Of a DNA stretch of 64,000 bases, positions 22,177-40,962 are shown one piece after another (position 1 is the first letter of the stretch; every line of letters begins with the position of its first letter). The translations under genes were made by a program, and so were the position numbers. Source of the stretch: a virus; IMG/VR virus record IMGVR_UViG_3300034071_000719, positions 15,577 to 79,576 of that record; one strand, given 5' to 3'. The notes under the pieces were generated by a model, which saw only the letters and a program-made list of their open reading frames with translations, was not told the DNA's origin and did no database searches.

Positions 22177-22207
22177 ATAGGTAAGTTATTTACACTTACC
22201 TATTTTT
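22177..22207 (+). terminator. Rho-independent terminator of the structural operon
   Basis: Perfect 10-bp stem ATAGGTAAGT/ACTTACCTAT, 7-nt loop, then a T-run. Confidence 0.65.
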
Positions 22208-23286: not shown

Positions 23287-24131
23287 CACCACATCAAGCA
23301 CAGCAAGGCTTTATGACCATTGCACAAAACACAGCAGACGTTGATTATTTACGTCTCGCTTACGTACAAGCAATGAGCATTAAACTAACAATGCCCGGTA
23401 GCTTGTATGCAGTAGCAGTTGATAAAAATACATTAGAGCAAGTAACAGAACAACATCGTAAAGTGTTTGATTATGTAATTACAATTGAAAATGACTTAGC
23501 GCAAGACGAAACTTGGAAGTTAAGTAACGAGTGGCAAGCATTTTATCTCACACCATTCAAAGAAACAATTAAACTTGAAAGCGATATTGTGTTTACAAGA
23601 AGCATTGCACACTGGTGGACTGCTTTTAGATTAAAAAATGTTGTACTAAGCACAGGCTGTAGAGATTATAAGCAAGAGTTAAGTAACTCACGTGAATATA
23701 GAAAGTTGTTTGATGATAACGAATTACCCGATACCTACAATGGACTAATGTATTTTAGGTACACAAGAGAAGCAACACAGTTCTTTACACTAGCAGAACA
23801 AATATTTAAAAACTGGGCGTATCTACGTGATAATGTATTACTTAACTGTCGCGACGATAACCCAACTACTGATGTTGTTTATGCGTTAACTGCAAAGTTA
23901 ATTGGCGTAGAAGATTGTACATTGTCGATGGACTTTATTAACTTTGTGCATATGAAACCTGCTATTAACAAGTGGACAAGTACGCCGTGGCCCGAATTAG
24001 TAATGTGCGAAACAGATTTGCCAATGGTACGTATAGCAAATACAAATCAATATCATCCGATTCACTATCACGAAAAGAGTTGGGTAACTGATGCATTAGT
24101 TAAGGAGTACGAAGATGAATTCAGAAGATGA
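23277..24131 (+). CDS. Glycosyltransferase-like protein (GT-A fold), paralog of the preceding gene
   Basis: YLRLAYVQAMSIK, FYLTPFKETIKLESDI (ExD variant), TDVVYA, FVHMK, HYH. Confidence 0.65.
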   Translation: MRITPHQAQQGFMTIAQNTADVDYLRLAYVQAMSIKLTMPGSLYAVAVDKNTLEQVTEQHRKVFDYVITIENDLAQDETWKLSNEWQAFYLTPFKETIKLESDIVFTRSIAHWWTAFRLKNVVLSTGCRDYKQELSNSREYRKLFDDNELPDTYNGLMYFRYTREATQFFTLAEQIFKNWAYLRDNVLLNCRDDNPTTDVVYALTAKLIGVEDCTLSMDFINFVHMKPAINKWTSTPWPELVMCETDLPMVRIANTNQYHPIHYHEKSWVTDALVKEYEDEFRR

Positions 24132-24465
24132 ATTAGCTAAAGCATTTGCAATGATACAACCTATCATAGAAGAAGTTAAAGAATACAGAATACACTATGA
24201 AGAAGATGGGCACATTACAATGTGTACAATGATAAATCACCCAGATGATACAACATATATCGTTGTTAGCAAAGATGAATACGACAACTACTTCCGCTAT
24301 ACAATTGTAGATGGTAAGCTGAAAAAGATTGACAACAACCCCGGTATTCGTGTACAATTAGTAAGTAGCTCCGAGGGTTATGCTGTAGTAAAGAAACATG
24401 CTGGATTAATATTAGAACCAACCGATACTTACAATGAGATTGAATACTATGACACAAATCGTTGA
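24115..24465 (+). CDS. Hypothetical protein
   Basis: 116-aa acidic ORF overlapping both neighbours. Confidence 0.55.
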   Translation: MNSEDELAKAFAMIQPIIEEVKEYRIHYEEDGHITMCTMINHPDDTTYIVVSKDEYDNYFRYTIVDGKLKKIDNNPGIRVQLVSSSEGYAVVKKHAGLILEPTDTYNEIEYYDTNR

Positions 24466-25345
24466 TATTGCAGATTTAGACTGCATCTACCTAAGTTATG
24501 ATGAGCCAAAAAAAGAAGAGTTTTGGATTAAGATTCAAAATATGGTTCCGTGGGCTAAACGTGTAGATAGTGTTAAAGGCAGTGATGCCGCACATAAAGC
24601 AGCCGCATCTGCAAGTGATACTGAACGCTTTGTATTAATCGATGGCGACAACTTACCCGACCCAGAGTTCTTTAACTTACAACTTACATTAGATGATACT
24701 AATAAAGATGTAGTCTTTCGTTGGAAGGCACGTAACATCATTAATGGCTTACAGTACGGTAACGGTGGTATGAGTTGCTGGACTAAAGAATTCATCAATA
24801 ATATGCGCACACACGAAGCAAGCAACGGTGATGATGATACTGCCGTTGAGTTTTGCTTTGACCCACGCTATTGGGCAATGAATGATTGCTACAGCACAAC
24901 ATACCCAAATCAAAGTCCATATCAAGCGTGGAGAGCTGGCTTTAGAGAAGGCGTTAAGATGTGTTTAGATCGCGGCACTAAGCCAAATCTATTAGATTTT
25001 GAGAAGCGTGTACATGATCGGAACTACGATCATTTAAGCATATGGCATAATGTAGGCATGGACGTAGAGAATGGTGACTGGGCAATGTACGGTGCTAAAC
25101 TTGGCACATATATGACTATGATTACAGATTGGGATTATAGAGAAGTACAAGACTTTGATGCATTGGATAAAATTTGGCATCAAAACAAAGTACTAAACTT
25201 AGTAGAAGAATGCAATGAAATGTCACATACATTAAATGTAAAATTAGGATTACCCGCACCACATTTAACAGCAGACCAAAGTAAATTCTTTAAATATCAT
25301 TACAAGAGTATGTTTAAGAATAAAGGAGTAATGTATCGTGAATGA
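24449..25345 (+). CDS. Glycosyltransferase (GT2-like, GT-A fold)
   Basis: IYLSYDEP, AHKAAA, FVLIDGDN (DxD), YGNGG, AWRAGFREGVKM; alternative start at 24434. Confidence 0.7.
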   Translation: MTQIVDIADLDCIYLSYDEPKKEEFWIKIQNMVPWAKRVDSVKGSDAAHKAAASASDTERFVLIDGDNLPDPEFFNLQLTLDDTNKDVVFRWKARNIINGLQYGNGGMSCWTKEFINNMRTHEASNGDDDTAVEFCFDPRYWAMNDCYSTTYPNQSPYQAWRAGFREGVKMCLDRGTKPNLLDFEKRVHDRNYDHLSIWHNVGMDVENGDWAMYGAKLGTYMTMITDWDYREVQDFDALDKIWHQNKVLNLVEECNEMSHTLNVKLGLPAPHLTADQSKFFKYHYKSMFKNKGVMYRE

Positions 25346-25961
25346 TTTAACTATTTCGCCGTGGCATGTTCTAAATATAGATATTAGTAATGCTATACGA
25401 GAAGATTTTGATTTTAATAATTTAATCAATGAATCAACTATCCGTGATTTATGGCCATATAATCGAGAAACAATAAGTGAGCTATTCTCTGCTGAATGGT
25501 TAGCTTATATGAATGAGATTGGATTACCACCGGATTCTGCTACTATCTTTTATAGATCTCCATTCTTTGAAGAATCAATGGCGCACGTTGATTTATTCCA
25601 AAATCCAATTCGTCCAGCAGTATTTGCATTAAATTGGGTAGTAAGTGAAGGGGACGACAGCGAAATGATTTGGTTCGATACTCCTGACACCCCAGGTGAA
25701 TATATTATGTACGATGCAACTGAAGTTGGATCTCGTAATATGTCTTGGCCGATGTCATCGTTTGATGGTAAACACATGTACCGTAGAACATTAGGTAAAC
25801 AGTTAACTTTAGTAGCAACAGGTAGGCCACATAATATTATTGTTAATAAGATTCCTCGTTGGTGCATAAGTGTACGTTTTTCTACTAGAACATTTAATAT
25901 TCAGTCATGGGAAGAAGCAATTGCGCACTTTAGCAAATTTATAGTTAAGGCACCAGAATAA
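25338..25961 (+). CDS. Putative 2OG-Fe(II) oxygenase/cupin-fold protein
   Basis: H-x-D (AHVD) ... H (RPHNI) ... R-x-x-x-S (RWCISVRF) pattern. Confidence 0.5.
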   Translation: MNDLTISPWHVLNIDISNAIREDFDFNNLINESTIRDLWPYNRETISELFSAEWLAYMNEIGLPPDSATIFYRSPFFEESMAHVDLFQNPIRPAVFALNWVVSEGDDSEMIWFDTPDTPGEYIMYDATEVGSRNMSWPMSSFDGKHMYRRTLGKQLTLVATGRPHNIIVNKIPRWCISVRFSTRTFNIQSWEEAIAHFSKFIVKAPE

Positions 25962-26630
25962 ATGTTAATAACTTACGGAAGTAATAAACCGTTATGTCTG
26001 ATTGGTGTTCCAAAATCAGTAATGACACAAGAAGGATTATTTTATCTTGAGAACGGATATAATGATCCAGATCACACAGCAGGACCAATTACAGTAATCA
26101 CTCCAGAAGAATTTTTGGCATTAAATGATAAAACTGTATATCAATATTGTGTAGTGTTTACACTTGATACAGTTGCTAGAACAAATATAATTAATATTTT
26201 AGAAGAGCAACAACTAGATTGCTTTAGTTATGTACATCATACATCGGTGATACGCAACGATATTGCAATAACTGAAGTTATTGGACACGGTAGTTTTCTG
26301 TGCTCATTTAATACAGTTATGATGGGCGCAACCATCGGAAAACATTGCATATTAGAAACATATTGCCTTATATCACATTATAGTACATTAGCGGATAATG
26401 TTATTATACATTCGGGCACATTGATTGCTGGTAAAACTAAAATCGGTAGCGGGTGTATATTTAATTTTAAAGCAGCCTCACTTAATGCATTAACAATATG
26501 TGATGGTGTTGAAGTGGGTGCATTAAGTACAGTCACTAAAGACATAGCTGTATCGGGACGATACATGGGTTCGATTGCACGATATGTGGGACCTCTAATT
26601 ATATTTCAAGACCCGGGAACAACAGGATAG
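25962..26630 (+). CDS. Sugar O/N-acetyltransferase (NeuD/PglD-like, left-handed beta-helix)
   Basis: Hexapeptide repeats IGHGSF/IGKHCI/IGSGCI, ISH catalytic His, VTKDI...G..AR. Confidence 0.8.
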   Translation: MLITYGSNKPLCLIGVPKSVMTQEGLFYLENGYNDPDHTAGPITVITPEEFLALNDKTVYQYCVVFTLDTVARTNIINILEEQQLDCFSYVHHTSVIRNDIAITEVIGHGSFLCSFNTVMMGATIGKHCILETYCLISHYSTLADNVIIHSGTLIAGKTKIGSGCIFNFKAASLNALTICDGVEVGALSTVTKDIAVSGRYMGSIARYVGPLIIFQDPGTTG

Positions 26631-26632
26631 TT

Positions 26633-27325
26633 ATGTATAAATCATGGCCATTGGCCCCAACATATGAATGGCGACGCCGAGAATTAGATCAATTAACTGC
26701 ACAAGGTTATGTGTGGAATTCTCCATCAGATGTAATTGATCTATTTGAAAAGAAAGTAGCTACTTTTGCGGGCAGTAAATATGCAGTAGCAATTGATTGT
26801 TGTTCACATGGTATATTTCTTGCATTAAAATATCTCAAAGCATTTGGCCCAATAGATGTCCCAGCACGTACATATATATCAGTACCGGCGCAAGTTATCC
26901 ATGCTGGGTGCAGTGTTAATTTTACACAAGAAGAATGGACTGGTGTATATCAATTAACTCCGTATCCTATTTTTGATGGAGCAGTGCGTTGGCAAAAGGA
27001 TATGTACAAGGGTGGGTTCCATATACTATCATTTCAGATTAAAAAGCGTATACCAATCGGCAAAGGCGGCATGATTCTAACTGATGATATAGATGCATAC
27101 AATTGGCTTAAACGAGCTAGTCATGATGGTAGAACATTTGGCGTTAATTTTGATCAAGATACAGTTGAAATGATAGGCTGGCACTATAATATGACTCCCG
27201 AAGATGCTGCAAGAGGTATTATGCTAATGGACCAAACAGCTGATTTCAATGAAGATTCGGGCAATTATAAATCGTACACCGATTTGTCACTATTGTCAAT
27301 TTTTACAAAAACAACGGAGAAGTAA
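26633..27325 (+). CDS. DegT/DnrJ/EryC1/StrS PLP aminotransferase, short form
   Basis: FEKKVATFAGSKYAVAIDCCS, DGA, LSFQIKK (PLP Lys), GKGGMILTDD; only 230 aa. Confidence 0.75.
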   Translation: MYKSWPLAPTYEWRRRELDQLTAQGYVWNSPSDVIDLFEKKVATFAGSKYAVAIDCCSHGIFLALKYLKAFGPIDVPARTYISVPAQVIHAGCSVNFTQEEWTGVYQLTPYPIFDGAVRWQKDMYKGGFHILSFQIKKRIPIGKGGMILTDDIDAYNWLKRASHDGRTFGVNFDQDTVEMIGWHYNMTPEDAARGIMLMDQTADFNEDSGNYKSYTDLSLLSIFTKTTEK

Positions 27326-28359
27326 TGAAAGTAGATATGCAAAAACATTGGGGCAGTAAAGAACTTTATTACGTGCCCGAGTTGATTTCTAAAATAATTC
27401 ATAGTATGCAAACAGATGGAACGGTATATCTATTCACTAATGAAGGAAAAAATGGTGCCAACAATGGTTTGTATAAATTATTAGATGACTTGTGCTTGTA
27501 CTGGAAATGGGACAAGTCGGCTATTACAATAGAAACATCAAACTTTATGCCTACTTCATGGTTAACAACAGAATTATTGCCAAACTATGGTAGTAGCCAC
27601 CCTGACTATAATATAAAACGCACTTCGCTTAATATGATGGCGGCATATATGGATATTACTAGTAAAATATATTCATGGAATAAAGAAAAATATTACGGAA
27701 TGTTTATTGCTCGTGCATCATCCGACAGGATTTACGCTGCACATGCTCATACAAAATTTAAATTTAAGGAAATGGGGCTAACAAGTTTTAGAGAAAATTT
27801 ATTCGAATATATGAGTTATCCTGATCTAGTAGATTACTTTATGCATTCAAATCAGACATACAAAGAAATGCTAGAAGTTGTGCCACACAGTGATATAGAA
27901 GAGTTAATCCCGTCTCCGAATTCGCCATTAATTACTCCGCCGTATAATACCAGTGATTGGGGTAAGGTATACGAAAAAATAGCCATTGATATTGTATGCG
28001 AAACTAGTACTGAACCAAATTGTGGTGATGTGTCAGAGAAAGTATATCGCCCATTGTATTATAAACGACCGTTTTTATTAATTGGCTCACCGGGGCAATT
28101 TGCTATTCTGCATGAGTTAGGATTTAAAACATTTGATGGGATAATCGACGAATCCTACGATAAATTAACCGGAGTTGCTCGTGTCAATAAAGTATTTGAA
28201 ATATTAGAACAATTAATTTTAGACAACAGAATGGATACGCTGTTAGATGAATGTAAAGAAATACTTGAACATAACCATAAACAAATGATTCGATTATCTA
28301 TTGAACATAGAGTAAAGCATAGAGACGAGCTAAAAAAATTGATGGATAACGATGAGTAG
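27325..28359 (+). CDS. Putative glycosyltransferase (GT10/fucosyltransferase-like C-terminal domain)
   Basis: DIVCET...SEKVYRPLYYKRPFLLIG...LGFKTF...DESYD. Confidence 0.5.
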   Translation: MKVDMQKHWGSKELYYVPELISKIIHSMQTDGTVYLFTNEGKNGANNGLYKLLDDLCLYWKWDKSAITIETSNFMPTSWLTTELLPNYGSSHPDYNIKRTSLNMMAAYMDITSKIYSWNKEKYYGMFIARASSDRIYAAHAHTKFKFKEMGLTSFRENLFEYMSYPDLVDYFMHSNQTYKEMLEVVPHSDIEELIPSPNSPLITPPYNTSDWGKVYEKIAIDIVCETSTEPNCGDVSEKVYRPLYYKRPFLLIGSPGQFAILHELGFKTFDGIIDESYDKLTGVARVNKVFEILEQLILDNRMDTLLDECKEILEHNHKQMIRLSIEHRVKHRDELKKLMDNDE

Positions 28360-29737
28360 TAATTTTATGTCGGCTGCAGAGGAAATGAAGGACAAGTTAG
28401 GTCCTGCACTCTGCTTGGCTAAATGGCAACAAGTAAGTCTACATTTGCCAACTGGACTAACAAACAGTTGCTATCATCCGCCCTTACACGAAATTGATAG
28501 TGCGCCACTACTATTTAATCCGGGTGCGCTACACAATACTGACTACAAGAAACAGCAACGTAAACTTATGCTAGAGCAAACACGCCCGGCAGAATGTAGT
28601 TATTGTTGGAGTGCAGAAGATAACAACCAACTAAGCGACAGACACTATCGCTCCGGTGAACCATGGGCGGCTGAACACTATGAAGAAATAGTAAACGCAC
28701 CATGGGACCAAGACGTTGTACCGAGTTATGTTGAAGTAAACTTCAGTCATGGCTGTAACTTAGCATGTTCATATTGCTCCCCACAATACTCAACAGAGTG
28801 GGGTAAGGATACAGACAGATGGGGTGCGTATCCAACAAGCGTACCACACAATGCGCCTGAACACTTTCAAGGTCGCCGCAAGCCAATCCCAGTACGCGAA
28901 GCTAATCCGTATGTTGAAGCATTTTGGCGTTGGTGGCCCGAGCTGTATCCTAAGCTAAAACACTTTAGAATGACTGGTGGTGAACCGCTTATGGATAAGA
29001 ATACGCACCGTGTATTTGATTACATACTTGCACTACCAAAAAGTGATTTACACGTTGATGTAACTAGTAACTTCAGTGTTGAGCCACAAGTATTTGAAAA
29101 GTATTTAGACAAAGTTAAACAACTATGCACGGGCGAACGTATAGAACACTTTATGCAGTATGTTAGTCTAGATACTGGACTTCCTGCACATGCAGAATAT
29201 ATACGCGATGGGCTATATTGGGATAGAGTCATGCGATATTCTAACGCTTTCCTAACAGAAGTGCCATACCGCAATAGCCTAACGTTTATTATCACAATGA
29301 ACAATTTAAACATACTTGGACTAAAACTTTTATTGACTCAGATATTAGAGATGCGTAACAAATACAGCACAACTTATCAACGTGTGTGGTTCGATACGCC
29401 ACTATTACGTAGCCCAACCTATCAAAGTTTACAAATACTCCCAGCAAGTTATGTTCGCATATTAGAAGATGTTGTTACGTTTATGCGAACAAATCAAGCA
29501 GACGAAACAGCTGATAACTTCGAAGGCTTTAAAGATTATGAAATACAACGTATGGAACGTAATGTTGAATGGATGAAACAAGGTTGCGAACTCTCGAAGG
29601 AATATGTTACAATACAAAGAGCAGACTTCTATAGATTTTTTAATGAATATGATAAACGCAGAGGTTTAAACTTTTTGGAAACATTCCCACAGATGACAGA
29701 ATTTTGGCAGGAGTGCAAATACCATGCCGAAACGTAA
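28352..29737 (+). CDS. Radical SAM protein with N-terminal Twitch domain (1 of 7)
   Basis: CLAKW...SCYHP...CSYC, then CNLACSYC and TGGEP. Confidence 0.9.
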   Translation: MSSNFMSAAEEMKDKLGPALCLAKWQQVSLHLPTGLTNSCYHPPLHEIDSAPLLFNPGALHNTDYKKQQRKLMLEQTRPAECSYCWSAEDNNQLSDRHYRSGEPWAAEHYEEIVNAPWDQDVVPSYVEVNFSHGCNLACSYCSPQYSTEWGKDTDRWGAYPTSVPHNAPEHFQGRRKPIPVREANPYVEAFWRWWPELYPKLKHFRMTGGEPLMDKNTHRVFDYILALPKSDLHVDVTSNFSVEPQVFEKYLDKVKQLCTGERIEHFMQYVSLDTGLPAHAEYIRDGLYWDRVMRYSNAFLTEVPYRNSLTFIITMNNLNILGLKLLLTQILEMRNKYSTTYQRVWFDTPLLRSPTYQSLQILPASYVRILEDVVTFMRTNQADETADNFEGFKDYEIQRMERNVEWMKQGCELSKEYVTIQRADFYRFFNEYDKRRGLNFLETFPQMTEFWQECKYHAET

Positions 29738-30884
29738 TAATGCATTTTGCATTAAACCGTGGACGCAAGCATGTATCAGAACAAATGGTGATATTACTTT
29801 ATGCTGTCAGAGTTTAGAAAAATCAAACTTTAATTTAAAAACATCAACAATAGATGCTTGGTGGAATAGTGAATTTGTGTCTACAACCCGAACTCAAATG
29901 TTAAACAAAACTATTCCACCGGCATGCATGAGTTGTGCAGCAGAAGAACAACAAGGTAGTATTAGTTTACGGCAAAAATCTAATAAAGAATATAAAATTT
30001 TTGAGCAATACGCAGAGCAAACACTATCACATTTTCGTTATCCTATGCTATCGCCTATCGAAATGGAAATACAACTTACTAATTTATGTAATTTAAAATG
30101 TTTAATGTGTGCCGAAGAGGCAAGTAGTGCTTTATTAAGCGAGAATATGCGCTTAAGAATAAACATATCCAAGCCCGATGATTACACTTTAAGTGATAGT
30201 GACTTTAATAAGATACAGGCATGGATTGCAACCAAACCTAAATCGATTAATTTTCGCGGTGGCGAGCCACTCGTGGTGCCAGAAATTAAAAGGTTATTAC
30301 AGTGGGGAGTAGAGCAGGAATTGTTGGCAGACACAGTAATACATATATCTACAAATGCAACTAAATTAGATAATGAATGGATGTCTATACTAACATCAAT
30401 TAAGCAATTACGAATCATGGTCAGTATAGATGCAATCGGACAGTTAAATGATTATATTCGATTCGGTAGTAAATGGGATATAATTAACACCAATGTTGCT
30501 AAATTATCACGTATACCAGGAATAAATTTAGTAGTACATGCCACTATACAAAATTTAAATATCCTATCTATAGGAAATTTGATTACTTGGTGTGAATTAA
30601 ATAGTTACTTTTTTGATTTTACTATTCTGTCAGAGCCGACTATATTCAAACTTACTAATTTACCATCTAATTTGTTGTCTGACGCAATGCATAATCTTAG
30701 GGAATTGTCTGATACGGCAGGTAATGGAGCACACCTGGCTGACATTGTTGAGCATGCGATTCAATCGTCGGATTCCCAATGGGATAATTTTAAAAATGAA
30801 ATTAATATGAGAGATCAAGCAAGGAATACATCTATTCTAGATATTATTCCACAATTCAGAGAGTATTGGCATGCCAAAAATTAA
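29724..30884 (+). CDS. Radical SAM protein with N-terminal Twitch domain (2 of 7)
   Basis: CIKPW...CC...CMSC, then CNLKCLMC and GGEP. Confidence 0.9.
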   Translation: MPKRNNAFCIKPWTQACIRTNGDITLCCQSLEKSNFNLKTSTIDAWWNSEFVSTTRTQMLNKTIPPACMSCAAEEQQGSISLRQKSNKEYKIFEQYAEQTLSHFRYPMLSPIEMEIQLTNLCNLKCLMCAEEASSALLSENMRLRINISKPDDYTLSDSDFNKIQAWIATKPKSINFRGGEPLVVPEIKRLLQWGVEQELLADTVIHISTNATKLDNEWMSILTSIKQLRIMVSIDAIGQLNDYIRFGSKWDIINTNVAKLSRIPGINLVVHATIQNLNILSIGNLITWCELNSYFFDFTILSEPTIFKLTNLPSNLLSDAMHNLRELSDTAGNGAHLADIVEHAIQSSDSQWDNFKNEINMRDQARNTSILDIIPQFREYWHAKN

Positions 30885-32205
30885 CAACGAAACAGATTTA
30901 GAATATAAGCGTAGAGTGATCGACATTAAGTCGGATAGCTTTTGCGCGGCCAAATGGTACAATGCTACTATATGGTTAGGGTCAGGGCAGACTACAAGTT
31001 GCCATCATCCGCTACCACATCAAATCGATATAGAAGCAATTAAAACAAATCCAAGTGCAATACACAACACTCCACAAAAGAAAGAACAGCGTAGACAAAT
31101 GCAAGTAGGCGAACGACCCGCGGGCTGTGACTACTGCTGGAAGATAGAAGACATGAGCACAGATGCAGTTAGTGACCGTGTATATAAGACTGTAATTTAT
31201 AATGACAAGGACTTAGATGATGCATACAATTTACCTGCAAGCGAAGATGTTAACTTACAAACTTTGGAAATTGCCTTTGACAGAACTTGTCAGTTTGCTT
31301 GTTCTTACTGCAATCCTGCTTTTAGCACTAGTTGGGTTAGGGATATACATCAAAACGGCGCATACACCAATTTGGTTTCAGATGGCAGAAATCACTTTAC
31401 TCATGAGCATAATAGTAGTCAATTGTTTAAACTCAATGAAGTTAATCCATATGTCGAAGCGTTCTTCAAATGGTGGGAAACAGACTTACACAAAACATTA
31501 AAAGAGCTACGCATTACAGGTGGCGAACCACTAATGTCGGATAACACATGGCGCTTAATCGATTGGTTTAAAGCACACAAAGGCGAAAGTAAAACACGTC
31601 TTGCTATTAACAGTAATCTCGGCTTTAAGCGTGAGATACTTGAACGCTTACTTGATAGCACACAAGGACTTGAGCTTGACATTTACACTAGCAACGAGTC
31701 AATGGGTAACCATGCAGAATATATACGTGATGGGCTAGATTGGAAACAATGGAGTGAGAATTTAATATTTCTACTAGAGTCTAAAAAAGTACGTGGCATA
31801 CATGTCATGGGTACAATCAATGCATTGTGCTTATCTAGTCTGAGTGAATTCTTATGGAATATGATGAAACTTAAAGAGAAATATGGTCGGGAAGCATTAT
31901 CGTTTACATTAAACATTTTACGCTTTCCTAGCTTCCAAAGTCCGCTTATACTTCCGATCGAACTTCGTACAAAATATAGTAACGAGCTTGCAGAATTTTT
32001 GTTTAATAATAAAGAGAATGCGGTATTACACGAACATGAACGTGAACACATTAAACGTTTGATTGATTACTTAAAGCAAGATACACAAGTTGACAGTAAT
32101 TTACAAAACGATTTTAAACAGTTTTATCAGCAATACGACCAACGTCGTGACAAAGACTTTAAATACACGTTTACACAATTAACTAACTGGTACGAAACAC
32201 TATGA
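30871..32205 (+). CDS. Radical SAM protein with N-terminal Twitch domain (3 of 7)
   Basis: CAAKW...SCHHP...CDYC, then CQFACSYC and TGGEP. Confidence 0.9.
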   Translation: MPKINNETDLEYKRRVIDIKSDSFCAAKWYNATIWLGSGQTTSCHHPLPHQIDIEAIKTNPSAIHNTPQKKEQRRQMQVGERPAGCDYCWKIEDMSTDAVSDRVYKTVIYNDKDLDDAYNLPASEDVNLQTLEIAFDRTCQFACSYCNPAFSTSWVRDIHQNGAYTNLVSDGRNHFTHEHNSSQLFKLNEVNPYVEAFFKWWETDLHKTLKELRITGGEPLMSDNTWRLIDWFKAHKGESKTRLAINSNLGFKREILERLLDSTQGLELDIYTSNESMGNHAEYIRDGLDWKQWSENLIFLLESKKVRGIHVMGTINALCLSSLSEFLWNMMKLKEKYGREALSFTLNILRFPSFQSPLILPIELRTKYSNELAEFLFNNKENAVLHEHEREHIKRLIDYLKQDTQVDSNLQNDFKQFYQQYDQRRDKDFKYTFTQLTNWYETL

Positions 32206-33536
32206 AAATAAAAAAGACCAAGGGCAATTTTAAAAACTATGATTATAATAGTACCATGCCCTTATACTGTGACCCTGCAGACTTAACAGCAAAACATAAA
32301 GAACTCTTAACAGAAAGTAAAGTATTCTGTATACTGCCGTGGATTCATATGCATGCGTTTCCAGACGGAAGAGCATACCCTTGCTGTTTAGGCGAAATGT
32401 GGCAACCGATTGGTGACTTGCGCAAAAATACAATGGAAGAAGTATGGAATGATGCGCCTATGCGTAAGATGCGTACAAACATGTTAAATGATAAACCGTG
32501 TAAAGAATGTACTAAGTGTTACGAACTAGAAGATAATAGTTTCTTTAGTATGCGCAATAGCTTTAGTAAGGACTTCGGTCATTTAATCGAACTAAGCGAT
32601 GCTACCAACGATGATGGTAGCTTAGATGATTTTACATTACGTTATTATGATGTACGTTTTAGTAATTTATGTAATTTTCGTTGCCGTAGCTGTGGTCCTA
32701 TCTTTAGTAGTAATTGGTACAATGACCATGTTAAACTGTATGGTAAAAAGCCCGAGGTACTAGGTAAAGAAATGGCAATGGTTGAATATGCCGGCCGCCA
32801 CAAGTATGATATGTGGGAGCAAATGCAAGAACATATCCCTAACTTAGAACAAATATACTTTGCTGGTGGCGAACCACTTATCATGGAAGAGCATTACATG
32901 ATTCTTAAAGAATTGGTAGCTCAAAAATTATTCCATGTTCGTTTAATATATAATACTAACTTTAGCGAAATGGTATACAAAGGGCAAGATGTATTTGAAC
33001 TTTGGAAATTGTTTGATAGCGTAAGCATCGGCGCAAGTTTAGATGATAATTATGCACGTGGCGAATACATGCGCAAAGGACAAGAGTGGGAACAAACAGA
33101 AGCCAATCGCCGTCGAATGTTAGAAGTCTGTCCAAATGTAGACTTTTATGTAAGTAGCACTGTTAGCTTATATAATGTATTACATGTAACAGAATTTCAT
33201 AGAGATTGGGTTGAAAAAGGACTAGTGCGCCCGCAAGATTGGAATATTAATCTATGCCAAAGTCCAGACAGAATTCGTGCAGATGTATTACCTGATGTAT
33301 ATAAACAACAAGCAATTAAGAAAATTGAAGAGCACATAAAATGGCTTGAACCGCAAGATTCTATTAGTAGAGCAACTGGCGGATACAAAGGGATTATTAA
33401 TTTCTTAAATCAACACGATAACAGTCACTTTTTACCTGAATTCTTTAAGTCTAATGATGAAGTTGATGTAGTTAGAGAAGAGAAGTTCGAAGAAGTATTT
33501 CCAGAATATGCAGAGTTGAGATCATATGTCAAATAA
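32202..33536 (+). CDS. Radical SAM protein with N-terminal Twitch domain (4 of 7)
   Basis: CILPW...PCC...CTKC, then CNFRCRSC and AGGEP. Confidence 0.9.
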   Translation: MKIKKTKGNFKNYDYNSTMPLYCDPADLTAKHKELLTESKVFCILPWIHMHAFPDGRAYPCCLGEMWQPIGDLRKNTMEEVWNDAPMRKMRTNMLNDKPCKECTKCYELEDNSFFSMRNSFSKDFGHLIELSDATNDDGSLDDFTLRYYDVRFSNLCNFRCRSCGPIFSSNWYNDHVKLYGKKPEVLGKEMAMVEYAGRHKYDMWEQMQEHIPNLEQIYFAGGEPLIMEEHYMILKELVAQKLFHVRLIYNTNFSEMVYKGQDVFELWKLFDSVSIGASLDDNYARGEYMRKGQEWEQTEANRRRMLEVCPNVDFYVSSTVSLYNVLHVTEFHRDWVEKGLVRPQDWNINLCQSPDRIRADVLPDVYKQQAIKKIEEHIKWLEPQDSISRATGGYKGIINFLNQHDNSHFLPEFFKSNDEVDVVREEKFEEVFPEYAELRSYVK

Positions 33537-34737
33537 TGAATTACCTAAAACTATATGTATGGTACCTTGGATTAGTGTCGAAACTAGCCCAATAAGTACT
33601 ACCCGTCCTTGCTGTTTAGCATTAGACGAAATTACTCGCACCGACGGTACTAAGTACAGTCTTAAAGATAGTACATTAGAAGAAGTTTATCATAGTCCAT
33701 ATATGCAAAATTTACGTCAAGAGTTTTTAGATGGCAAGAAACCAGAAACATGTAAAAGATGCTGGGATGAAGAAGATGCTGGCCGCGCAAGTAAACGAAT
33801 AAACAGTAGAATTCGTCTTAAAGAGTACTACGATCAAATTGATTGGACTAATACCAATCCTAATCAGCTGTGGTTCATTGACTTAAAACTAGGTAATATT
33901 TGCAATCTAAAATGTCGTATATGTGGTAGTTGGTCTAGTAGTAAATGGGCACAAGAAGAAATCGCATACATGCCGGAACTTAAAAATAAAAAAGAACATC
34001 TTGCATATAAATTTTTAACAGATGGAGCATGGCCACGGGAAAGTGTTGATTTTTGGGAGAACTTAAAATCATTATTACCAAACATTAAGTACTTTGAATT
34101 TACAGGTGGTGAGCCATTTTTAATCAAAGAACACTTTGAGCTTTTGCAGTATGCAGTCGAACATGGCTATAGTAAAAATATTGAAATACATTATAATACA
34201 AATGGAACAGTGTTTCCAGAGAATGGTGCTGAACTATGGAATCAATTTAAACGTGTAGAAGTTGCATTTAGTATAGACAACGTTGGCGCTCAATTTGAGT
34301 ACGAACGGTATGGCGCAATCTGGGATGAAGTACAAACAAACATAGCTAAGTTCAATGCAATGCGCAATGATATAATTACTACGCAAATATGTTTAACTAT
34401 CAATATACAAAACGTATACTATCTGCCAGAATTATGTGAATGGATTAATACACAAACATTTGACCATACATATTTTAATATGTTGCATGATCCAAATCAC
34501 ATGAACATTAACAATATGACTCCTGCAGCAAACAAGTTAGTTATCCAACGTCTGTCGGGATATGCTTTTTCACCTAGACATAAAGCTGAAATAATTCGTA
34601 TTATTAAATTTATCGAAAACGGCAAAGGCGGTAGCGGACAAGATTTTATGCGGAAAATGCAAACAACAGATGCATATCGCAATGAAAGTTTCTTGACCAC
34701 ACACAAAGAAATTGCACTTGCAATGGGCTATAAATGA
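33526..34737 (+). CDS. Radical SAM protein with N-terminal Twitch domain (5 of 7)
   Basis: CMVPW...PCC...CKRC, then CNLKCRIC and TGGEP. Confidence 0.9.
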   Translation: MSNNELPKTICMVPWISVETSPISTTRPCCLALDEITRTDGTKYSLKDSTLEEVYHSPYMQNLRQEFLDGKKPETCKRCWDEEDAGRASKRINSRIRLKEYYDQIDWTNTNPNQLWFIDLKLGNICNLKCRICGSWSSSKWAQEEIAYMPELKNKKEHLAYKFLTDGAWPRESVDFWENLKSLLPNIKYFEFTGGEPFLIKEHFELLQYAVEHGYSKNIEIHYNTNGTVFPENGAELWNQFKRVEVAFSIDNVGAQFEYERYGAIWDEVQTNIAKFNAMRNDIITTQICLTINIQNVYYLPELCEWINTQTFDHTYFNMLHDPNHMNINNMTPAANKLVIQRLSGYAFSPRHKAEIIRIIKFIENGKGGSGQDFMRKMQTTDAYRNESFLTTHKEIALAMGYK

Positions 34738-35771
34738 TAACACGGTGTAATGCGCCGTGGGTAGCACGGTTTATTAATCCAACTGGGCGAGTAACACCGT
34801 GTTGTTACATAGTACCGACTAATATAGAAAAACTCAAAGAATCATTTGATAACGGTATAAAAAGCCCAGCATGTGGTTATTGTTGGTTGGCAGAAAAAAA
34901 TAATGTACATAGTCCTCGGTTAGATTATAATAACTTGCTGGGCAACACAGTAACTCACTTAACTATTAATTTAGGTAATTACTGCAATGCTGAATGTATA
35001 ATGTGCAACGGTAATACTAGTAGTAGCCGCAATTCATGGGCGCGATTACATAGCCCAAAAGAATTTAAAATTAATGTAATACCCGAAGCCAATATTGATA
35101 ATTTTGATTTTTTGGAATATCCGGATTTAACAACATTAACTCTATTAGGTGGCGAACCAGCAATACATCCGAGCACTATTAAAATTTTAAATCAATTAAT
35201 AGAACAGGATTTAGCAAAGAATGTAAACATTAGTTTAAATACTAATGCCAGTAAACTTGATGATATATTGATAGACAGACTCCGTTGTTTTAAAAGTATA
35301 TCGGTTACATTAAGTATCGACGGAACCGGCAAGTATTTTGAATATCAGCGCCGCCCCCTAAGATGGGATCAAGTTAAAGTAATTGCTGAGCAATGGATGG
35401 AGATTAGTGAAAGCATAGTTATTAATTATGTAGTAACTGCGATTAGTGTGTGGTCATTTAATGATTTTATTTCGTGGTTTGTAGAGTTGCCTGATTCAAT
35501 TCATAACAAACAGCCACAAATTTCAATGAATCAGGTCTGGGTGATGAATCATGCATACCTAACGTTGGCTGTATTAACAGACGATCAAAAACAACAATGG
35601 TTAGTAGAAGCAATTGATCATCCGGCTAAGCAAGATATAATAAACATTTTAAATAGTGTAACTTATAACGCAGCTCAATGTACAATCTTCAAAGAAAAAA
35701 TGAAATTAGAAGATATAACTGCTAAATTAAAGTTTGCTGAGATATTTCCGGACTGGCTACTAAATGACTAA
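34734..35771 (+). CDS. Radical SAM protein with N-terminal Twitch domain (6 of 7)
   Basis: CNAPW...PCC...CGYC, then CNAECIMC and LGGEP. Confidence 0.9.
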   Translation: MITRCNAPWVARFINPTGRVTPCCYIVPTNIEKLKESFDNGIKSPACGYCWLAEKNNVHSPRLDYNNLLGNTVTHLTINLGNYCNAECIMCNGNTSSSRNSWARLHSPKEFKINVIPEANIDNFDFLEYPDLTTLTLLGGEPAIHPSTIKILNQLIEQDLAKNVNISLNTNASKLDDILIDRLRCFKSISVTLSIDGTGKYFEYQRRPLRWDQVKVIAEQWMEISESIVINYVVTAISVWSFNDFISWFVELPDSIHNKQPQISMNQVWVMNHAYLTLAVLTDDQKQQWLVEAIDHPAKQDIINILNSVTYNAAQCTIFKEKMKLEDITAKLKFAEIFPDWLLND

Positions 35772-37050
35772 ACCACAAACACTTTGTTTAGCACCGTGGG
35801 TACACACATATCTTTCACCACAAACTGAAAGACGTATGTGTTGTGCTAGTCGCGAGCCGGCGCAGAACTTTGAACAGTATATCGACGTCTCGGCGGGTAC
35901 AGGGCGTTATATACCAATAACTCTGGATGAACACTGGAATAGCGAGCACATGCGGTCGGTCCGTCGTCGCATGATTGCTGGGGAAACCCTCCCAGAGTGT
36001 GAGGTATGTAATGATAAACTGTTGAATACATCAGTTTACCGTAGTTATTTTGATCAGATGTTTGGTGATAAATATTTACAAGTAACAGAAACAACAGATT
36101 CAACGGGTTACACAACAATGCGCCCTGTAAGTTGGGATTATAGATTTAGTAATCTGTGCAACTTTAAATGTCGTATGTGTGGTGATATGTTAAGCAGTGC
36201 TTGGGAAACTGAGCAACGTCAACATAATATGATTAACTGGCATAACCCCAAGAACAATTGGATGAAGCCAGAAGTAAAGCAAGAAATTACAGCATTTCAA
36301 GATAGTCAAATAGAACAAGAGTTTGCTCGAGCAGTCGAAGATCATCAAGTTGAGGAAGTATATTGGGTAGGCGGTGAGCCACTAATGTATGAACAACACT
36401 GGCGTTATATGAAACGCATTATTGATTTAGGAGATGGCAAACATGCTTACGCACGGTACAATACAAATCTTAGCCGCGTCAACTATCGTGGCGTCAATCT
36501 CTACACTGACATTTTATCTGGGCTACGCGATTGGCAAATCTGTGCCAGTCTCGACGGAACTGGAGCAATTGGAGAATATATTAGAACAGGACTTGATTAT
36601 AATCAATGGCTTGAAAATTTCCGTGAAGGAGTTAGAATTGCAAGTCACAGACGCCAAATGCGAATTGACTTCACTCTCACACTGCCCGGCATGTTTGAAG
36701 TCACAAACATTACCCAGCTTGCTTCGGAAGAAAACGTAGACATACTGGCTAAAGTTGTTTTCGGCTTTAGCCCAGACATTATCCTTAGTCCCCTTGCACT
36801 ACCACGCGACTTACTACATCCATGGTTAGACGAACTAATCCCGCAAACTTCTGGAGCCATGCAAGATATACTTGTACAGCTAAAATCACGACCAACGTTC
36901 GACGAGCAATGGCCTGATACATATAAGAAAGAGCTTGACAAAGGTAAGCAACGTGTGTTACAATTAGAAAGTATACGTAACGATACATATACGTTAGCAG
37001 ACATATTAAAAGAGAGACCCGAAGTATATGAATGGTACCAATCAATCTAA
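35764..37050 (+). CDS. Radical SAM protein with N-terminal Twitch domain (7 of 7)
   Basis: CLAPW...MCC...CEVC, then CNFKCRMC and VGGEP. Confidence 0.9.
   Translation: MTKPQTLCLAPWVHTYLSPQTERRMCCASREPAQNFEQYIDVSAGTGRYIPITLDEHWNSEHMRSVRRRMIAGETLPECEVCNDKLLNTSVYRSYFDQMFGDKYLQVTETTDSTGYTTMRPVSWDYRFSNLCNFKCRMCGDMLSSAWETEQRQHNMINWHNPKNNWMKPEVKQEITAFQDSQIEQEFARAVEDHQVEEVYWVGGEPLMYEQHWRYMKRIIDLGDGKHAYARYNTNLSRVNYRGVNLYTDILSGLRDWQICASLDGTGAIGEYIRTGLDYNQWLENFREGVRIASHRRQMRIDFTLTLPGMFEVTNITQLASEENVDILAKVVFGFSPDIILSPLALPRDLLHPWLDELIPQTSGAMQDILVQLKSRPTFDEQWPDTYKKELDKGKQRVLQLESIRNDTYTLADILKERPEVYEWYQSI
36935..36964 (+). promoter_or_regulatory. Possible internal sigma70 promoter for the downstream half of the island
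   Basis: TTGACA-18 nt-TACAAT with extended TGn, ~60 nt before the ATG at 37028; lies inside a CDS. Confidence 0.4.
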
Positions 37051-38200
37051 AGTAACTGTAACACTACGCAACCCGCTAGATTTTGCAGATCAACTTGAAT
37101 ACTATATTATTCCTAATGATACACAGTTGGCAGCCGATTGGATTATTGCCCTCAAAGAAATTCTATCAGCTAATAATCAATTAGAGAAGAATTATTGTTT
37201 TATGGGATTTCCGGAGTCTGCTAGAACACTAGAATATCTATGCGAACAAACAAATATTGCAGTTGAAATAATTAATAAATTTGATTTTACTCTTTACGGA
37301 TTGGATAATTATATCATTGAAGAATGGTTTAATCTTGATACAGTTCGATTTCCTGCTTCCTACCCTATCGAAGGTTCATTTGATAAACCCGGTACCGTCA
37401 CTAATTCTAAACGTGTAGAGATTGGATTATATCCAAAACACAGTATATTGAATAGATTACATACACATTTCGAGAGATTACAAGGAACAGTTGATAATCT
37501 TAGCGAGTATTACAAAGTAGCAGATTACAATACAAAATATGCTATTAGACAATTAAATATATTGTGTCACGAAATGGAATCGTTGATACTGAGTCAGCGA
37601 AAAAAAGCAAGCACACCGGAATGGATTAGACCTAGCCAAATTACGACTTTCTTAGGAATAAATAGATTTCCGTTGGATAAATCACATATTACTGGATTTG
37701 CTAGCAACGGGTACGACCGTAGATTTGGTCATGTATACATGCACTGGGCACAAATAGGCAAGACATTAATGGAAGTATTTCACGATGAAGCGGCACCCGA
37801 TCTGACCTCAACTATATGTGAGACCATTAATAGTTTAAAATATTATAGCGGTGAGTTTGATATTGAATGGGCAAAGGATGTTACCAAAGCAGATAATTAT
37901 CCGTGGGTAACTAAACAAGCTGCTGAATTTACTGCATGGCTAATTCAGCAAGGCCTCGATATTACTGATCCTTCATTGAGCCTAGGTTATCTTCCTATAG
38001 GTCAGGTCGATCTTATTGCTAGTTTTGGAACCAGCGATATGGTTACTGTATGGGATATGTTAAGTACGCACCTAGACATATACAAAATAGAAGTCGACGG
38101 AGTAAGTAACACTTTTGATTATTGTTGGTCAGACGATGACTATAAACAAAAACAAATAGATATGATGAAACCGGGATATGATTTTAGTAGCCGCAGGTGA
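37028..38200 (+). CDS. Hypothetical protein of unknown function within the island
   Basis: 390 aa, coupled to both neighbours; LNRLHTHFERLQG and QLNILCHEMES His motifs. Confidence 0.65.
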   Translation: MNGTNQSKVTVTLRNPLDFADQLEYYIIPNDTQLAADWIIALKEILSANNQLEKNYCFMGFPESARTLEYLCEQTNIAVEIINKFDFTLYGLDNYIIEEWFNLDTVRFPASYPIEGSFDKPGTVTNSKRVEIGLYPKHSILNRLHTHFERLQGTVDNLSEYYKVADYNTKYAIRQLNILCHEMESLILSQRKKASTPEWIRPSQITTFLGINRFPLDKSHITGFASNGYDRRFGHVYMHWAQIGKTLMEVFHDEAAPDLTSTICETINSLKYYSGEFDIEWAKDVTKADNYPWVTKQAAEFTAWLIQQGLDITDPSLSLGYLPIGQVDLIASFGTSDMVTVWDMLSTHLDIYKIEVDGVSNTFDYCWSDDDYKQKQIDMMKPGYDFSSRR

Positions 38201-38888
38201 TAGTTTTGTATGGGGAATAGAACTAGCTAATTGCGTTCACTATAACATTGGTGGGCACAGCCTAAATTCCTTTCCGGCTTTGTTAGCTCAACAATCTAAT
38301 ATGAGATATATATGTGCAGCAATGCCGGGTAATGCTAATAATGCAATTGGTAGAATGGCAATTGACGCATTGAGCAAAATAGATGACGATAAGTTTTTAT
38401 TAGTTGAATGGACTTATCCACAACGCTGTGAATTTAGAATTAACGACAAGTGGGTTAGCATAAACAGCTGGCATACTGACGCTAAAGAATTTAGTGAAAG
38501 TTATTTTAAACATGCCGGCGATAGCGAATACTACGAAATTTACTCTATTCTTAAAGAAATAGTATTTCTGCAACAATATTGCATGATAAACAAGATACCA
38601 TATATGTTTATGACTGCTAACAATCATTTCTATAAACATGAAAATTATTTTAGATACAGTGATACTAATTTGACGAACTTATTTAATCAAATTAATTGGG
38701 ATAATTGGTTTTGGTTTGATGCTCCTGCACCAGCAACTGATCAGCACACACCAAGAGGATTCTACCAATGGGCAGTTGAAAATAAGTATAAAGTAGGCCG
38801 AAATGGCCACCCCCTTGAAGAAGCACATAAAGATGCTGCAATATTAATTAGGAAGAAATTCAATGAATTGGCTGCTAAACATAATTAA
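38178..38888 (+). CDS. SGNH/GDSL-like hydrolase or acyltransferase
   Basis: GDSF block I, PGNAN block II, GHPLEEAH block V. Confidence 0.7.
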   Translation: MILVAAGDSFVWGIELANCVHYNIGGHSLNSFPALLAQQSNMRYICAAMPGNANNAIGRMAIDALSKIDDDKFLLVEWTYPQRCEFRINDKWVSINSWHTDAKEFSESYFKHAGDSEYYEIYSILKEIVFLQQYCMINKIPYMFMTANNHFYKHENYFRYSDTNLTNLFNQINWDNWFWFDAPAPATDQHTPRGFYQWAVENKYKVGRNGHPLEEAHKDAAILIRKKFNELAAKHN

Positions 38889-38964
38889 TCGTGTTAAATT
38901 AGAAATACGTTATCGTAAGAAACTTAAAGAATTGCGTAAGCGCGATCCATTTATCTATAAATGA
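38863..38964 (+). CDS. 33-aa basic protein MNWLLNIINRVKLEIRYRKKLKELRKRDPFIYK (absent from the ORF track)
   Basis: Fills the gap exactly; its stop overlaps the next ATG (ATGA). Confidence 0.65.
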   Translation: MNWLLNIINRVKLEIRYRKKLKELRKRDPFIYK

Positions 38965-39506
38965 TTTTAGTAAACGGCGATAGTTTTACTGCTGGTGAAG
39001 AAAGTGATATTGCCTGGCCGGAGTTAATTGCTGATACTGTAAATATTGCTGTACCTGGTGCTAGCAATGATTATATACTTAGATCAACAGTTGATTATGT
39101 AGATAATAATAAAGTTGATTATGTAATAATAGCGTGGACTAGCCCCAATCGAATTGAATTACCAAACAAACACCTAACATCTGCTAGTTATAAGAAGTAT
39201 GGACCAGTGGTTAATAGTGTATTTGCTGAATGGGATACAGAGTGGGCATATAAGAAATTTATTGCGCAAACTAAATTATTAGATTGTTACTTAACAATGC
39301 CGCATTTGTTTGTAAGTACATTTGACATACAAACAGTGGCACAAGGTAGTGGGTTAGATTGTTGGCTAGGCTGGCCACACGAAGGATTAGTAGAGTGGAT
39401 GGGCAACTGTCTAAAAGGTTCTGGTGGACACCCACTGGAATTAGGACATCAACGAATAGCGGAAAAAATCAATGAACATATTAGGCATCTCGGCTGGGTT
39501 TCATGA
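38961..39506 (+). CDS. SGNH/GDSL-like hydrolase or acyltransferase
   Basis: GDSFT, AVPGASND, WTSPNR, GHPLELGH. Confidence 0.7.
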   Translation: MILVNGDSFTAGEESDIAWPELIADTVNIAVPGASNDYILRSTVDYVDNNKVDYVIIAWTSPNRIELPNKHLTSASYKKYGPVVNSVFAEWDTEWAYKKFIAQTKLLDCYLTMPHLFVSTFDIQTVAQGSGLDCWLGWPHEGLVEWMGNCLKGSGGHPLELGHQRIAEKINEHIRHLGWVS

Positions 39507-40962
39507 CGCAGCAATTACATTAATCAAAGGCGATGATATTGTCTTTGCAGGTCACGCTGAACGTTATAGCAAAATTAAACACGACCCAAACTTAAACGTT
39601 GAAATGCTCAGAGATTGTATATTCAATTATGGCGAACCTGATTTAATTGCATATTATGAAAGACCGTGGGTTAAAAAGACACGACAACTTTATGCTGGAC
39701 AATACAGTGAACTAACTAAAGGATGGAGTGTACGCAACATGATACACAAAGTCGCTCCGTGGTTAAGTTCTACTCCAATCAAAACATACAATCATCACCT
39801 ATCACATGCGGCCGCTGGCTTTCAAACTAGCCCGTTTGATGATGCAACAGTTGTTGTAATTGATGCAATTGGCGAGTGGGATACTATTAGCATATGGTCT
39901 GCAAAATATGTCAATGGTAAGGCACAATATACAAGAGTGTGGCGCCAATTATACCCACACAGCATCGGCTTAATGTACAGTGCATTTACTAAAGAAGTTG
40001 GCCTACGTCCGCTAGATGAAGAATACATTTTAATGGGCATGGCGGGCTGGGCAAAACAAGACACAACACGTTTAAGTGACCAACTTTCAAATTGGTTAGT
40101 TGACCACGAGTTTGAGCTAACATTAAAACATAACTTACATATCGGTCTACCCGACAATGATATAAAAGCAAAATGGAATGACTTTGAGATTGCTAATGCG
40201 GCTCAGACATTAACAGAACAATTGATACACAATATAATGTATAAAGCAAAAACACTAGCACCTAGTAGTAACTTGGTATACTCGGGCGGTGTTGCGCTTA
40301 ACTGTAGTGCTAATAGAGATTTAGGAGAATATTTTGATAACATTTGGATTATGCCCAATCCTGGCGATGCTGGTAGTAGCCTCGGTGCTGCAGCGTTGGC
40401 GCACGGTAGCAAACTTAACTGGGTGGATGCTTTTCTCGGGCATAACATTACTGGCCCTTATCCCTGTACTGATATTGTATCTGCATTAATGACAAACAAG
40501 ATTGTTGGCGTTGCCAATGGTCGTGCAGAATTTGGACCAAGAGCGTTGGGCAACAGAAGTTTACTAGCTGACCCACGCGGCCCTGATATTAAAGATGCTG
40601 TAAACTTAATTAAACGTCGTCAACAGTTTAGACCATTTGCTCCTATAATACTAGAGGAGTTTGTTGATGAGTATTTTGAAATGCCCAATGGATTTAAAAC
40701 AAGTCCGTACATGCAAACGACTGCAAAGTGCTTGCGTCCTAACGAATTTCCTGCTATAATACATATAGATGGTACAAGTAGAGTACAGACTGTTCCACGT
40801 GATAACAGTGGTATACGTGAACTATTGTGTTTATGGTATACATGGACAGGTTGTCCGATGTTGCTTAATACAAGTTTAAATGTACGCGGTGAACCAATGG
40901 TAAATGATCGTGCCGATGCAGATCGCTTTGAAGAACTGTATGGAGTAAAGGTACTAAGTTGA
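39472..40962 (+). CDS. Carbamoyltransferase, NodU/CmcH (TobZ) family
   Basis: HDAA, ERYSKIKHD, HHLSHA, DAIGE, SGGVALNC, GRAEFGPRALGNRS, FRPFAP, HIDGTSRVQTV, LLNTSLN. Confidence 0.93.
   Translation: MNILGISAGFHDAAITLIKGDDIVFAGHAERYSKIKHDPNLNVEMLRDCIFNYGEPDLIAYYERPWVKKTRQLYAGQYSELTKGWSVRNMIHKVAPWLSSTPIKTYNHHLSHAAAGFQTSPFDDATVVVIDAIGEWDTISIWSAKYVNGKAQYTRVWRQLYPHSIGLMYSAFTKEVGLRPLDEEYILMGMAGWAKQDTTRLSDQLSNWLVDHEFELTLKHNLHIGLPDNDIKAKWNDFEIANAAQTLTEQLIHNIMYKAKTLAPSSNLVYSGGVALNCSANRDLGEYFDNIWIMPNPGDAGSSLGAAALAHGSKLNWVDAFLGHNITGPYPCTDIVSALMTNKIVGVANGRAEFGPRALGNRSLLADPRGPDIKDAVNLIKRRQQFRPFAPIILEEFVDEYFEMPNGFKTSPYMQTTAKCLRPNEFPAIIHIDGTSRVQTVPRDNSGIRELLCLWYTWTGCPMLLNTSLNVRGEPMVNDRADADRFEELYGVKVLS

Follow-up and report, generated by a model that had tools for sequence, protein, structure and literature searches.

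Seven consecutive genes for radical S-adenosylmethionine (SAM) enzymes occupy positions 28352-37050 of the DNA analysed here, a 64,000-nucleotide stretch (the window) that corresponds to positions 15,577 to 79,576 of the IMG/VR virus record IMGVR_UViG_3300034071_000719. All seven belong to one family in which a cysteine-containing, Twitch-like domain precedes the radical SAM core. Five of them form a core that recurs in the same order in related viral loci, and the other two are accessory. From the neighbours and fusion partners of these genes we put at about even the chance that the set performs a multi-step radical tailoring of a sugar, a sugar nucleotide or a nascent glycan.

An earlier note on this DNA, made from the sequence alone, had described seven consecutive, overlapping radical SAM genes here, and all the details checked against the open reading frames (ORFs) and family scores proved correct. 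The genes, R1 to R7, lie on the plus strand and overlap by 4-14 nucleotides at each junction; the flanking gene on either side overlaps the array as well. Each product aligns with the whole length of NF033640 (N_Twi_rSAM), which NCBIfam titles "twitch domain-containing radical SAM protein", and exceeds the curated 170-bit cut-off, as confirmed on the genome record. R1 (28352..29737, 461 amino acids [aa]) scores 283.6 bits, R2 (29724..30884, 386 aa) 285.5, R3 (30871..32205, 444 aa) 291.3, R5 (33526..34737, 403 aa) 352.3 and R7 (35764..37050, 428 aa) 289.5. The best family match is R4 (32202..33536, 444 aa) at 387.9 bits, and the short R6 (34734..35771, 345 aa) is marginal at 174.2 bits. Pairwise identity in the seven-paralog alignment is 18-34%.

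In that alignment C21, W25, C40, C82 and C85 of the N-terminal domain are invariant, as are C135, C139 and C142 of the CX3CX2C motif and the GGEP motif at 209-212 (7/7). The note's N-terminal cysteine domain ahead of intact CX3CX2C and GGEP motifs is thus borne out by the alignment, and also by the order of Pfam matches, with SPASM at the N-terminus and Radical_SAM behind it. Five of the seven give a Pfam SPASM match in their N-terminal part (within residues 5-106), and only R2, R4 and R5 do so above the gathering threshold. For PF04055, with a gathering threshold of 29.5 bits, R1, R2, R5 and R6 are over (33.8-37.5) and R3, R4 and R7 under (23.5-27.2); by structure comparison, the fold of R4 is clearly that of a radical SAM core. 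The sequence family itself is already catalogued, as NF033640, and we agree with the note that it is functionally uncharacterised: NCBIfam lists the subfamily without a functional name and we found no paper on its function. A literature search on family function, N-terminal SPASM domains, radical SAM enzymes with O-antigen or phage glycosylation, and phage arrays of this kind returned nothing relevant, with subscription journals outside its coverage. As far as we found, the NF033640 description shares with the phage proteins the end-to-end match and the order of N-terminal Cys-rich domain then radical SAM core, and does not include a five-paralog phage array, fixed partner genes or fusions.

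The N-terminal domain resembles the Twitch domain that usually stands at the other end of such enzymes. A single N-terminal domain sequence found nothing useful in the PDB. A profile built from 56 domains (the window paralogs and their orthologs) hit a single family when run against the entire PDB, namely the Twitch domain at the C-terminus of BtrN, and did so weakly (E 0.04); within a full-length profile the BtrN match reaches E 7e-4. The alignment is colinear, and the four invariant cysteines fall, with similar spacing, on BtrN C169, C187, C232 and C235, which the 2013 structure paper of Goldman and colleagues is said to identify as the ligands of an auxiliary [4Fe-4S] cluster. These four are the only cysteines invariant across the 56 sequences. 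The C...C...CxxC pattern of a Twitch domain is therefore present, at the N-terminus in all seven proteins instead of the usual C-terminal location, and the seven-Cys SPASM motif CX9-15GX4C...CX2CX5CX3C...C is absent. With just four invariant cysteines, the domain is expected to hold a single auxiliary cluster, where a full SPASM domain has two. Judged from sequence, each enzyme probably holds two [4Fe-4S] clusters, the SAM-cleaving one at CX3CX2C and a fully Cys-ligated, Twitch-type auxiliary one. The domain arrangement is a permuted form of the BtrN/SPASM layout. BtrN (2-deoxy-scyllo-inosamine dehydrogenase of the butirosin pathway; PDB 4M7S/4M7T) shares with the phage proteins the core and a Twitch domain with a four-Cys auxiliary cluster, and its substrate is sugar-like; it differs in acting alone and in its C-terminal Twitch, whereas the phage domain is N-terminal and belongs to a five-enzyme set.

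An AlphaFold2 model of R4 (predicted local distance difference test score [pLDDT] 93.4) aligns with solved structures over residues ~120-408 only, which is the core. Its structural neighbours by Z score are SkfB (12.7; PDB 6EFN), BlsE (12.6), CteB (12.3; 5WGG), anSME (11.9; anSMEcpe, 4K36), viperin (11.5) and MoaA (11.3), with Foldseek template-modelling scores of just 0.3-0.38. No solved structure with a Twitch-then-core order was present among the structural matches found. SkfB, CteB and anSMEcpe, the closest overall neighbours of the core (Z 11.9-12.7), are SPASM maturases with a seven-Cys, two-cluster motif and the reverse domain order, whereas the phage proteins have four cysteines, and we saw neither a precursor nor an RRE domain near them. 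The best PDB sequence-profile match of the core is viperin (RSAD2; E 2e-8), which like BlsE acts on nucleotides or nucleotide-linked sugars. Viperin differs in having no auxiliary cluster domain, and the phage family scores far below the viperin cut-offs: six paralogs give weak viperin_w_prok matches, and the best score against the viperin family NF038283 is 32.6 bits, compared with a cut-off of 180.

The note had described seven divergent paralogs. Divergent, intact and constrained they are; they are not seven equal members. We compared the array with 26 IMG/VR loci found with R4, each of which has a tandem array of four to six such genes. In a FastTree tree of 133 proteins, five clades with 97-100% local support each consist of one window paralog (R1, R3, R4, R5 or R7) and 22-25 orthologs, and the gene order of these core paralogs is constant in all loci. 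R1 orthologs (56-75% identity) occur in 23 viral loci; R7 orthologs are 63-84% identical; the R3 clade has 25 rows, with gp202 of Ralstonia phage RsoM2USA as its sister; and R4 has more than 7500 homologs. All 124 members of the seven orthogroups, counting those of the window, keep CX3CX2C and GGEP, and every ortholog except one (of R7) matches a simple N-terminal Cys pattern. Against the nearest loci the proportion of synonymous differences is saturated (0.6-0.87) while that of nonsynonymous differences is low (0.11-0.27), which implies a ratio of nonsynonymous to synonymous substitution rates (dN/dS) of at most ~0.1 in the core genes and of 0.23 in R2. Synonymous changes make up 27 of the 40 best-supported population variants, and third codon positions account for 28. 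The five core genes are under strong purifying selection, and the array shows no decay; the note's view that the paralogs are intact was examined against assignment to housekeeping families and a dN/dS near 1, and the outcome speaks against decay.

R2 and R6 behave differently from the core. Among the 26 loci, R2 orthologs are limited to L008, L015 and L033, and a viral scan with R2 found just one distant locus. In lake-metagenome contigs from two studies, position 29737 is joined straight to 30871, which amounts to a precise removal of R2; the word ATGCCRAAA stands at both of its borders and is a possible recombination site. R2 is thus a presence/absence cassette in natural variants. R6 has no ortholog in the 26 loci, and a viral scan with it found no relative. 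It has five full-length relatives (46-55% identity) among 1.84 billion representatives, with CX3CX2C and GGEP in 5/5 and the CxxPW pattern in 4/5, and it is identical in contigs of three lake studies.

Natural fusions suggest that core proteins work together. When longer relatives were sought, many turned out to be R4-R5 or R5-R7 fusions, 790-870 aa in length. They follow the gene order, carry two full sets of CxxPW, CX3CX2C and GGEP each, and span many clusters at 45-68% identity. Because the neighbouring genes overlap, losing a stop codon is enough to fuse them; that such fusions have been kept time and again suggests partners acting in one pathway and probably in contact. The R4-R5 and R5-R7 enzymes therefore probably act together. 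The note had suggested that the paralogs serve separate substrates or positions, or build a hetero-oligomeric machine. The constant order of the five deep orthogroups and the fusions with two motif sets support this view, with a machine as one possible form of association.

The core does not travel alone. We counted co-conservation over the 26 viral loci for the genes on both sides of the array, all on the plus strand unless stated. A terminator-like hairpin (22177..22203; 10-bp stem and T-run) stands between the tail-fibre block and the module. It is followed by an upstream block of five genes (22224..25345) with orthologs in 20-24 loci. This block includes a putative glycosyltransferase (GT) family 8/glycogenin-like protein (23277-24131; weak, glycogenin E 0.006) and a very conserved, GT-A-like 303-aa protein with a DGD motif (24434-25345). 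The latter has weak Mannosyl_trans3 and Glyco_tranf_2_3 hints and no PDB sequence match, and its nearest named Atlas cluster is GT2 at 0.87. Next comes a variable slot (25338..28359), shared mainly with L016, which encodes a 207-aa protein, a hexapeptide acyltransferase (Hexapep 3.1e-10), a short DegT-like protein (DegT 9.7e-15) and a 344-aa protein; the first and the last have no assignment. The DegT-like ORF (26633-27325) has 230 aa and matches in two stretches, and may be a truncated or divergent short form; members of the DegT family are about 360 aa long.

Downstream, a 390-aa protein (37028..38200) overlaps R7 and has orthologs in 23 loci. Its model (pLDDT 83) suggests a cyclophilin-like beta-barrel with a helical insert, with middling VIA Z scores of 9-10 to cyclophilin-fold chains, and it had no sequence-family, PDB-sequence, Foldseek or Atlas match. 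Many His, Cys, Glu and Trp residues are invariant in this protein, and the predicted barrel is broken by a helical bundle. An SGNH-like protein (38178..38888; 17 loci) is so called from motifs in its translation, an N-terminal GDS block and a C-terminal GHP block; it has no Pfam GDSL match. A conserved 181-aa protein (38961..39506; 18 loci) matches no family. A NodU/CmcH-type carbamoyltransferase (39472..40962; 21 loci) is assigned firmly (Carbam_trans_N 1.5e-38, Carbam_trans_C 1.7e-48), and a small P-loop kinase-like protein of 138 aa (40959..41375; 18 loci) matches AAA_18 and APS_kinase. On the minus strand, a DegT aminotransferase and an NAD-dependent sugar epimerase/dehydratase (44457..46531; DegT 3.8e-86, Epimerase 4.8e-41) are predicted to supply a nucleoside diphosphate (NDP)-amino-deoxysugar.

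In bacteria the family is rare, with members over the cut-off in 3/401 sampled Pseudomonadota genomes, and it is found there in glycan loci. One chromosomal locus beside dnaE and accA encodes, in order, rmlC, rmlD, Wzm, a single ORF that combines Wzt, Wzt_C and a family member, and then three further members; it continues with a TylF-type O-methyltransferase, a second methyltransferase and WbsX. The combined ORF (L054:8579-11143, minus strand; 854 aa) joins the Wzt ABC ATPase and the carbohydrate-binding Wzt_C domain to a family member within this rml/Wzm/WbsX locus. Another bacterial member adjoins a GT2 gene and a sugar epimerase gene, six bacterial loci have a carbamoyltransferase homolog next to a member, and bacterial fusion partners include GT2 (P0227) and TPR plus CBM_4_9 (P0226). 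A degenerate-pattern scan of species genomes found 369 R4-like genes, mainly in Bacteriovoracaceae, Elusimicrobia and Bacteroidota, single or in arrays of up to eight. A member also occurs in a cultured bacterium, Agaribacillus aureus BMA12 (locus L132). The most frequent families among the 139 neighbours on 24 long bacterial contigs are PhyH (7), further radical SAM (5), GT2 (4), TPR (4), carbamoyltransferase (3), GT1 (3) and GDSL (3); WelO5 (2) is also present. A very large paralog expansion is found in one Elusimicrobia metagenome-assembled genome (MAG; L082, L101, L103, L109, L110 and L114), where dozens of tandem genes for ~600-1100 aa proteins each have an N-terminal-twitch radical SAM part; in the one gene examined there (L114:2043-4487) that part is fused to an OGT-like TPR superhelix. 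One of the three positive Pseudomonadota genomes is a MAG binned as Polynucleobacter. On the matching contig that was examined, L040 (G001:C12), T4-like gp47/gp46-type nuclease genes and a gene for a SegE GIY-YIG endonuclease are interspersed with three radical SAM genes, of which one has a C-terminal and another an N-terminal SPASM domain; the contig is probably phage DNA placed in a bacterial bin.

Several observations favour a carbohydrate substrate. The nearest solved small-molecule relatives (viperin, BlsE and the Twitch of BtrN) are sugar or nucleotide enzymes; the phage encodes NDP-sugar enzymes in the window; the core is conserved in the 26 loci with the carbamoyltransferase, the kinase, the 390-aa protein and the GT-like genes; and bacterial members occur in glycan loci and in fusions with GT2, CBM_4_9 and Wzt_C. 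The sugar or glycan substrate that the note had in mind thus gains support from context, in the phage neighbours, the bacterial loci and the fusion partners. On this proposal, the five core enzymes would act in series, probably in contact, and each would remove a hydrogen atom at its own position on a sugar, a sugar nucleotide or a nascent glycan. With the auxiliary cluster passing on the electron, the reaction could be an oxidation like that of BtrN, or else a related dehydration or rearrangement. Next, the carbamoyltransferase could O-carbamoylate the product, the SGNH-like protein edit its acyl groups and the small kinase perhaps phosphorylate it, and the upstream GT-A-like proteins would transfer it. 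R2 and R6 would be strain-specific extra tailoring steps. As the destination of the glycan, the virion is favoured because the module follows the fibre genes; the sequence data agree equally well with the host envelope. A bolder version, which we hold tentatively and consider somewhat doubtful, is that the five core enzymes are a physically associated multi-radical-SAM assembly performing chained C-H functionalisations on one carbohydrate scaffold, and so yield an unusual carbamoylated sugar on the fibres or on the infected cell surface of widespread lake jumbo phages. To our knowledge, such chained chemistry is not yet known in glycobiology.

A number of observations weigh against sugar or glycan tailoring. 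No family member has a known substrate, product or activity. The assignments of the upstream phage GT genes are weak (E 0.006 to 0.1), the clear NDP-sugar genes of the window lie outside the conserved core, and between the module and the fibre genes stands the terminator-like hairpin. In bacteria, many members carry a fused OGT-like TPR array, a type of repeat array that often binds proteins. The PhyH and WelO5 neighbours would suit natural-product tailoring too, the Wzt-radical SAM protein is a single ORF from one genome in which an assembly error is possible, and the top structural neighbours include the peptide maturases SkfB, CteB and anSME.

This last point leads to the alternative that the enzymes modify a protein or peptide, by cross-links, epimerisation or side-chain chemistry, with the tail fibre as a candidate substrate. 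Most SPASM and Twitch enzymes modify proteins or peptides, EpeE joins the three maturases among the best structural neighbours, the array lies downstream of the tail-fibre genes, and the tandem arrays of the Elusimicrobia MAG, with an OGT-like TPR fused to a family member, would suit protein substrates. We nevertheless think this unlikely. The module shows no Cys-rich, repetitive or leader-like small ORF, although very small ORFs were not searched systematically; its two conserved small proteins look ordinarily globular, with no precursor-like features; no RRE-type domain appears among the Pfam and NCBIfam matches; and no extra cysteine is invariant beyond the cluster ligands that could serve as a hydrogen donor. 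The GT2, CBM_4_9 and Wzt_C fusions and the rml/Wzm/Wzt loci point instead to carbohydrate.

The viperin match raises another alternative, that the enzymes act on nucleotides or phage DNA, in hypermodification or in making a nucleotide analogue as viperin or QueE do. Viperin is the best PDB sequence match of the core, six paralogs carry the weak viperin_w_prok matches, and a small P-loop kinase, a dCMP deaminase and a thymidylate synthase are encoded nearby. Yet scores against the viperin family fall far short of its cut-off, the dCMP deaminase occurs in only 9 of the 26 loci, the thymidylate synthase lies on the other strand outside the module, and bacterial members sit in polysaccharide, not nucleotide, loci; we regard action on nucleotides as improbable. 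We give similarly little credence to the idea that the module makes a carbamoylated small-molecule natural product, such as a toxin, antibiotic or signalling compound, in place of a surface glycan. The PhyH and WelO5-type oxygenases among the bacterial neighbours would fit, whereas the module has no polyketide synthase, nonribosomal peptide synthetase, amidinotransferase or export gene, PhyH was not found in the phage or its near-complete relative, and Wzm/Wzt plus rml contexts are classic O-polysaccharide loci. A case for redundancy or decay among the paralogs, as duplicates with no functions of their own, might be built on R6, barely over the cut-off and on a long branch, and on R2, dispensable in nature. 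This reading is already largely refuted, and we consider it very nearly out of the question: the five orthogroups are strongly supported with all motifs intact, dN/dS is low even in R2, population variants are mostly synonymous, and the full-length relatives of R6 all keep CX3CX2C and GGEP.

The apparently new elements are a conserved core of five enzymes with fixed partners, the naturally occurring fusions, R2 behaving as a cassette and a connection with polysaccharide loci of bacteria. Distant family members exist in cultured jumbo phages (Vibrio phages K566/K567 and QD01 and Ralstonia phage RsoM2USA), in several copies that are partly adjacent; they are ~22-25% identical and annotated just as hypothetical or "radical SAM domain-containing". 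Few radical SAM enzymes act on carbohydrates, and those that do usually catalyse one step of an antibiotic pathway. The present family is large and uncharacterised and has its Twitch domain in a permuted position; in abundant freshwater jumbo phages it supplies a conserved set of five enzymes, and its bacterial members occur in O-polysaccharide-type loci. The partners, fusions and accessory cassettes offer a concrete start for a substrate search, in the form of co-expression sets, binding pairs and bacterial loci. A product displayed on the fibres or the host surface would be relevant to host range and superinfection exclusion, and the enzymes are a possible source of new C-H activation chemistry.

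The source record is 79.6 kb long, with a CheckV completeness of 23%. Besides the array, the window encodes a baseplate wedge protein, tail-fibre genes, a thymidylate synthase and an HNH endonuclease; after the baseplate wedge gene comes a single ORF of 4255 aa (2143-14910). A relative, G004 (338.5 kb, 97% complete), has eight NF033640 members over the cut-off, five of them in tandem and three outside the main array, at 22392, 31448 and 290340. The same genome encodes an IscA/HesB-type Fe-S carrier (G004:C1:65137-65439, minus strand; PF01521, E 7e-21). Pfam flavodoxin, GDSL and PhyH had no match in the phage record or in this near-complete relative. At least 14 studies of lake water and freshwater have near-identical DNA in their metagenomes; the phage is a recurrent freshwater jumbo phage. 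A megablast search of the array against cultured phages gave no match. RNA run X20 contained a few short identical contigs within R4 and R7, which are not evidence of transcription. Promoter and terminator scans stayed at chance level, with the exception of the one intergenic hairpin. The T4 late-promoter word TATAAATA has 0 copies on both strands of window positions 1-64000, compared with ~12.8 (standard deviation 3.9) expected from composition, and CTAAATA is likewise under-represented in the window, with 6 copies against 20.3 expected.

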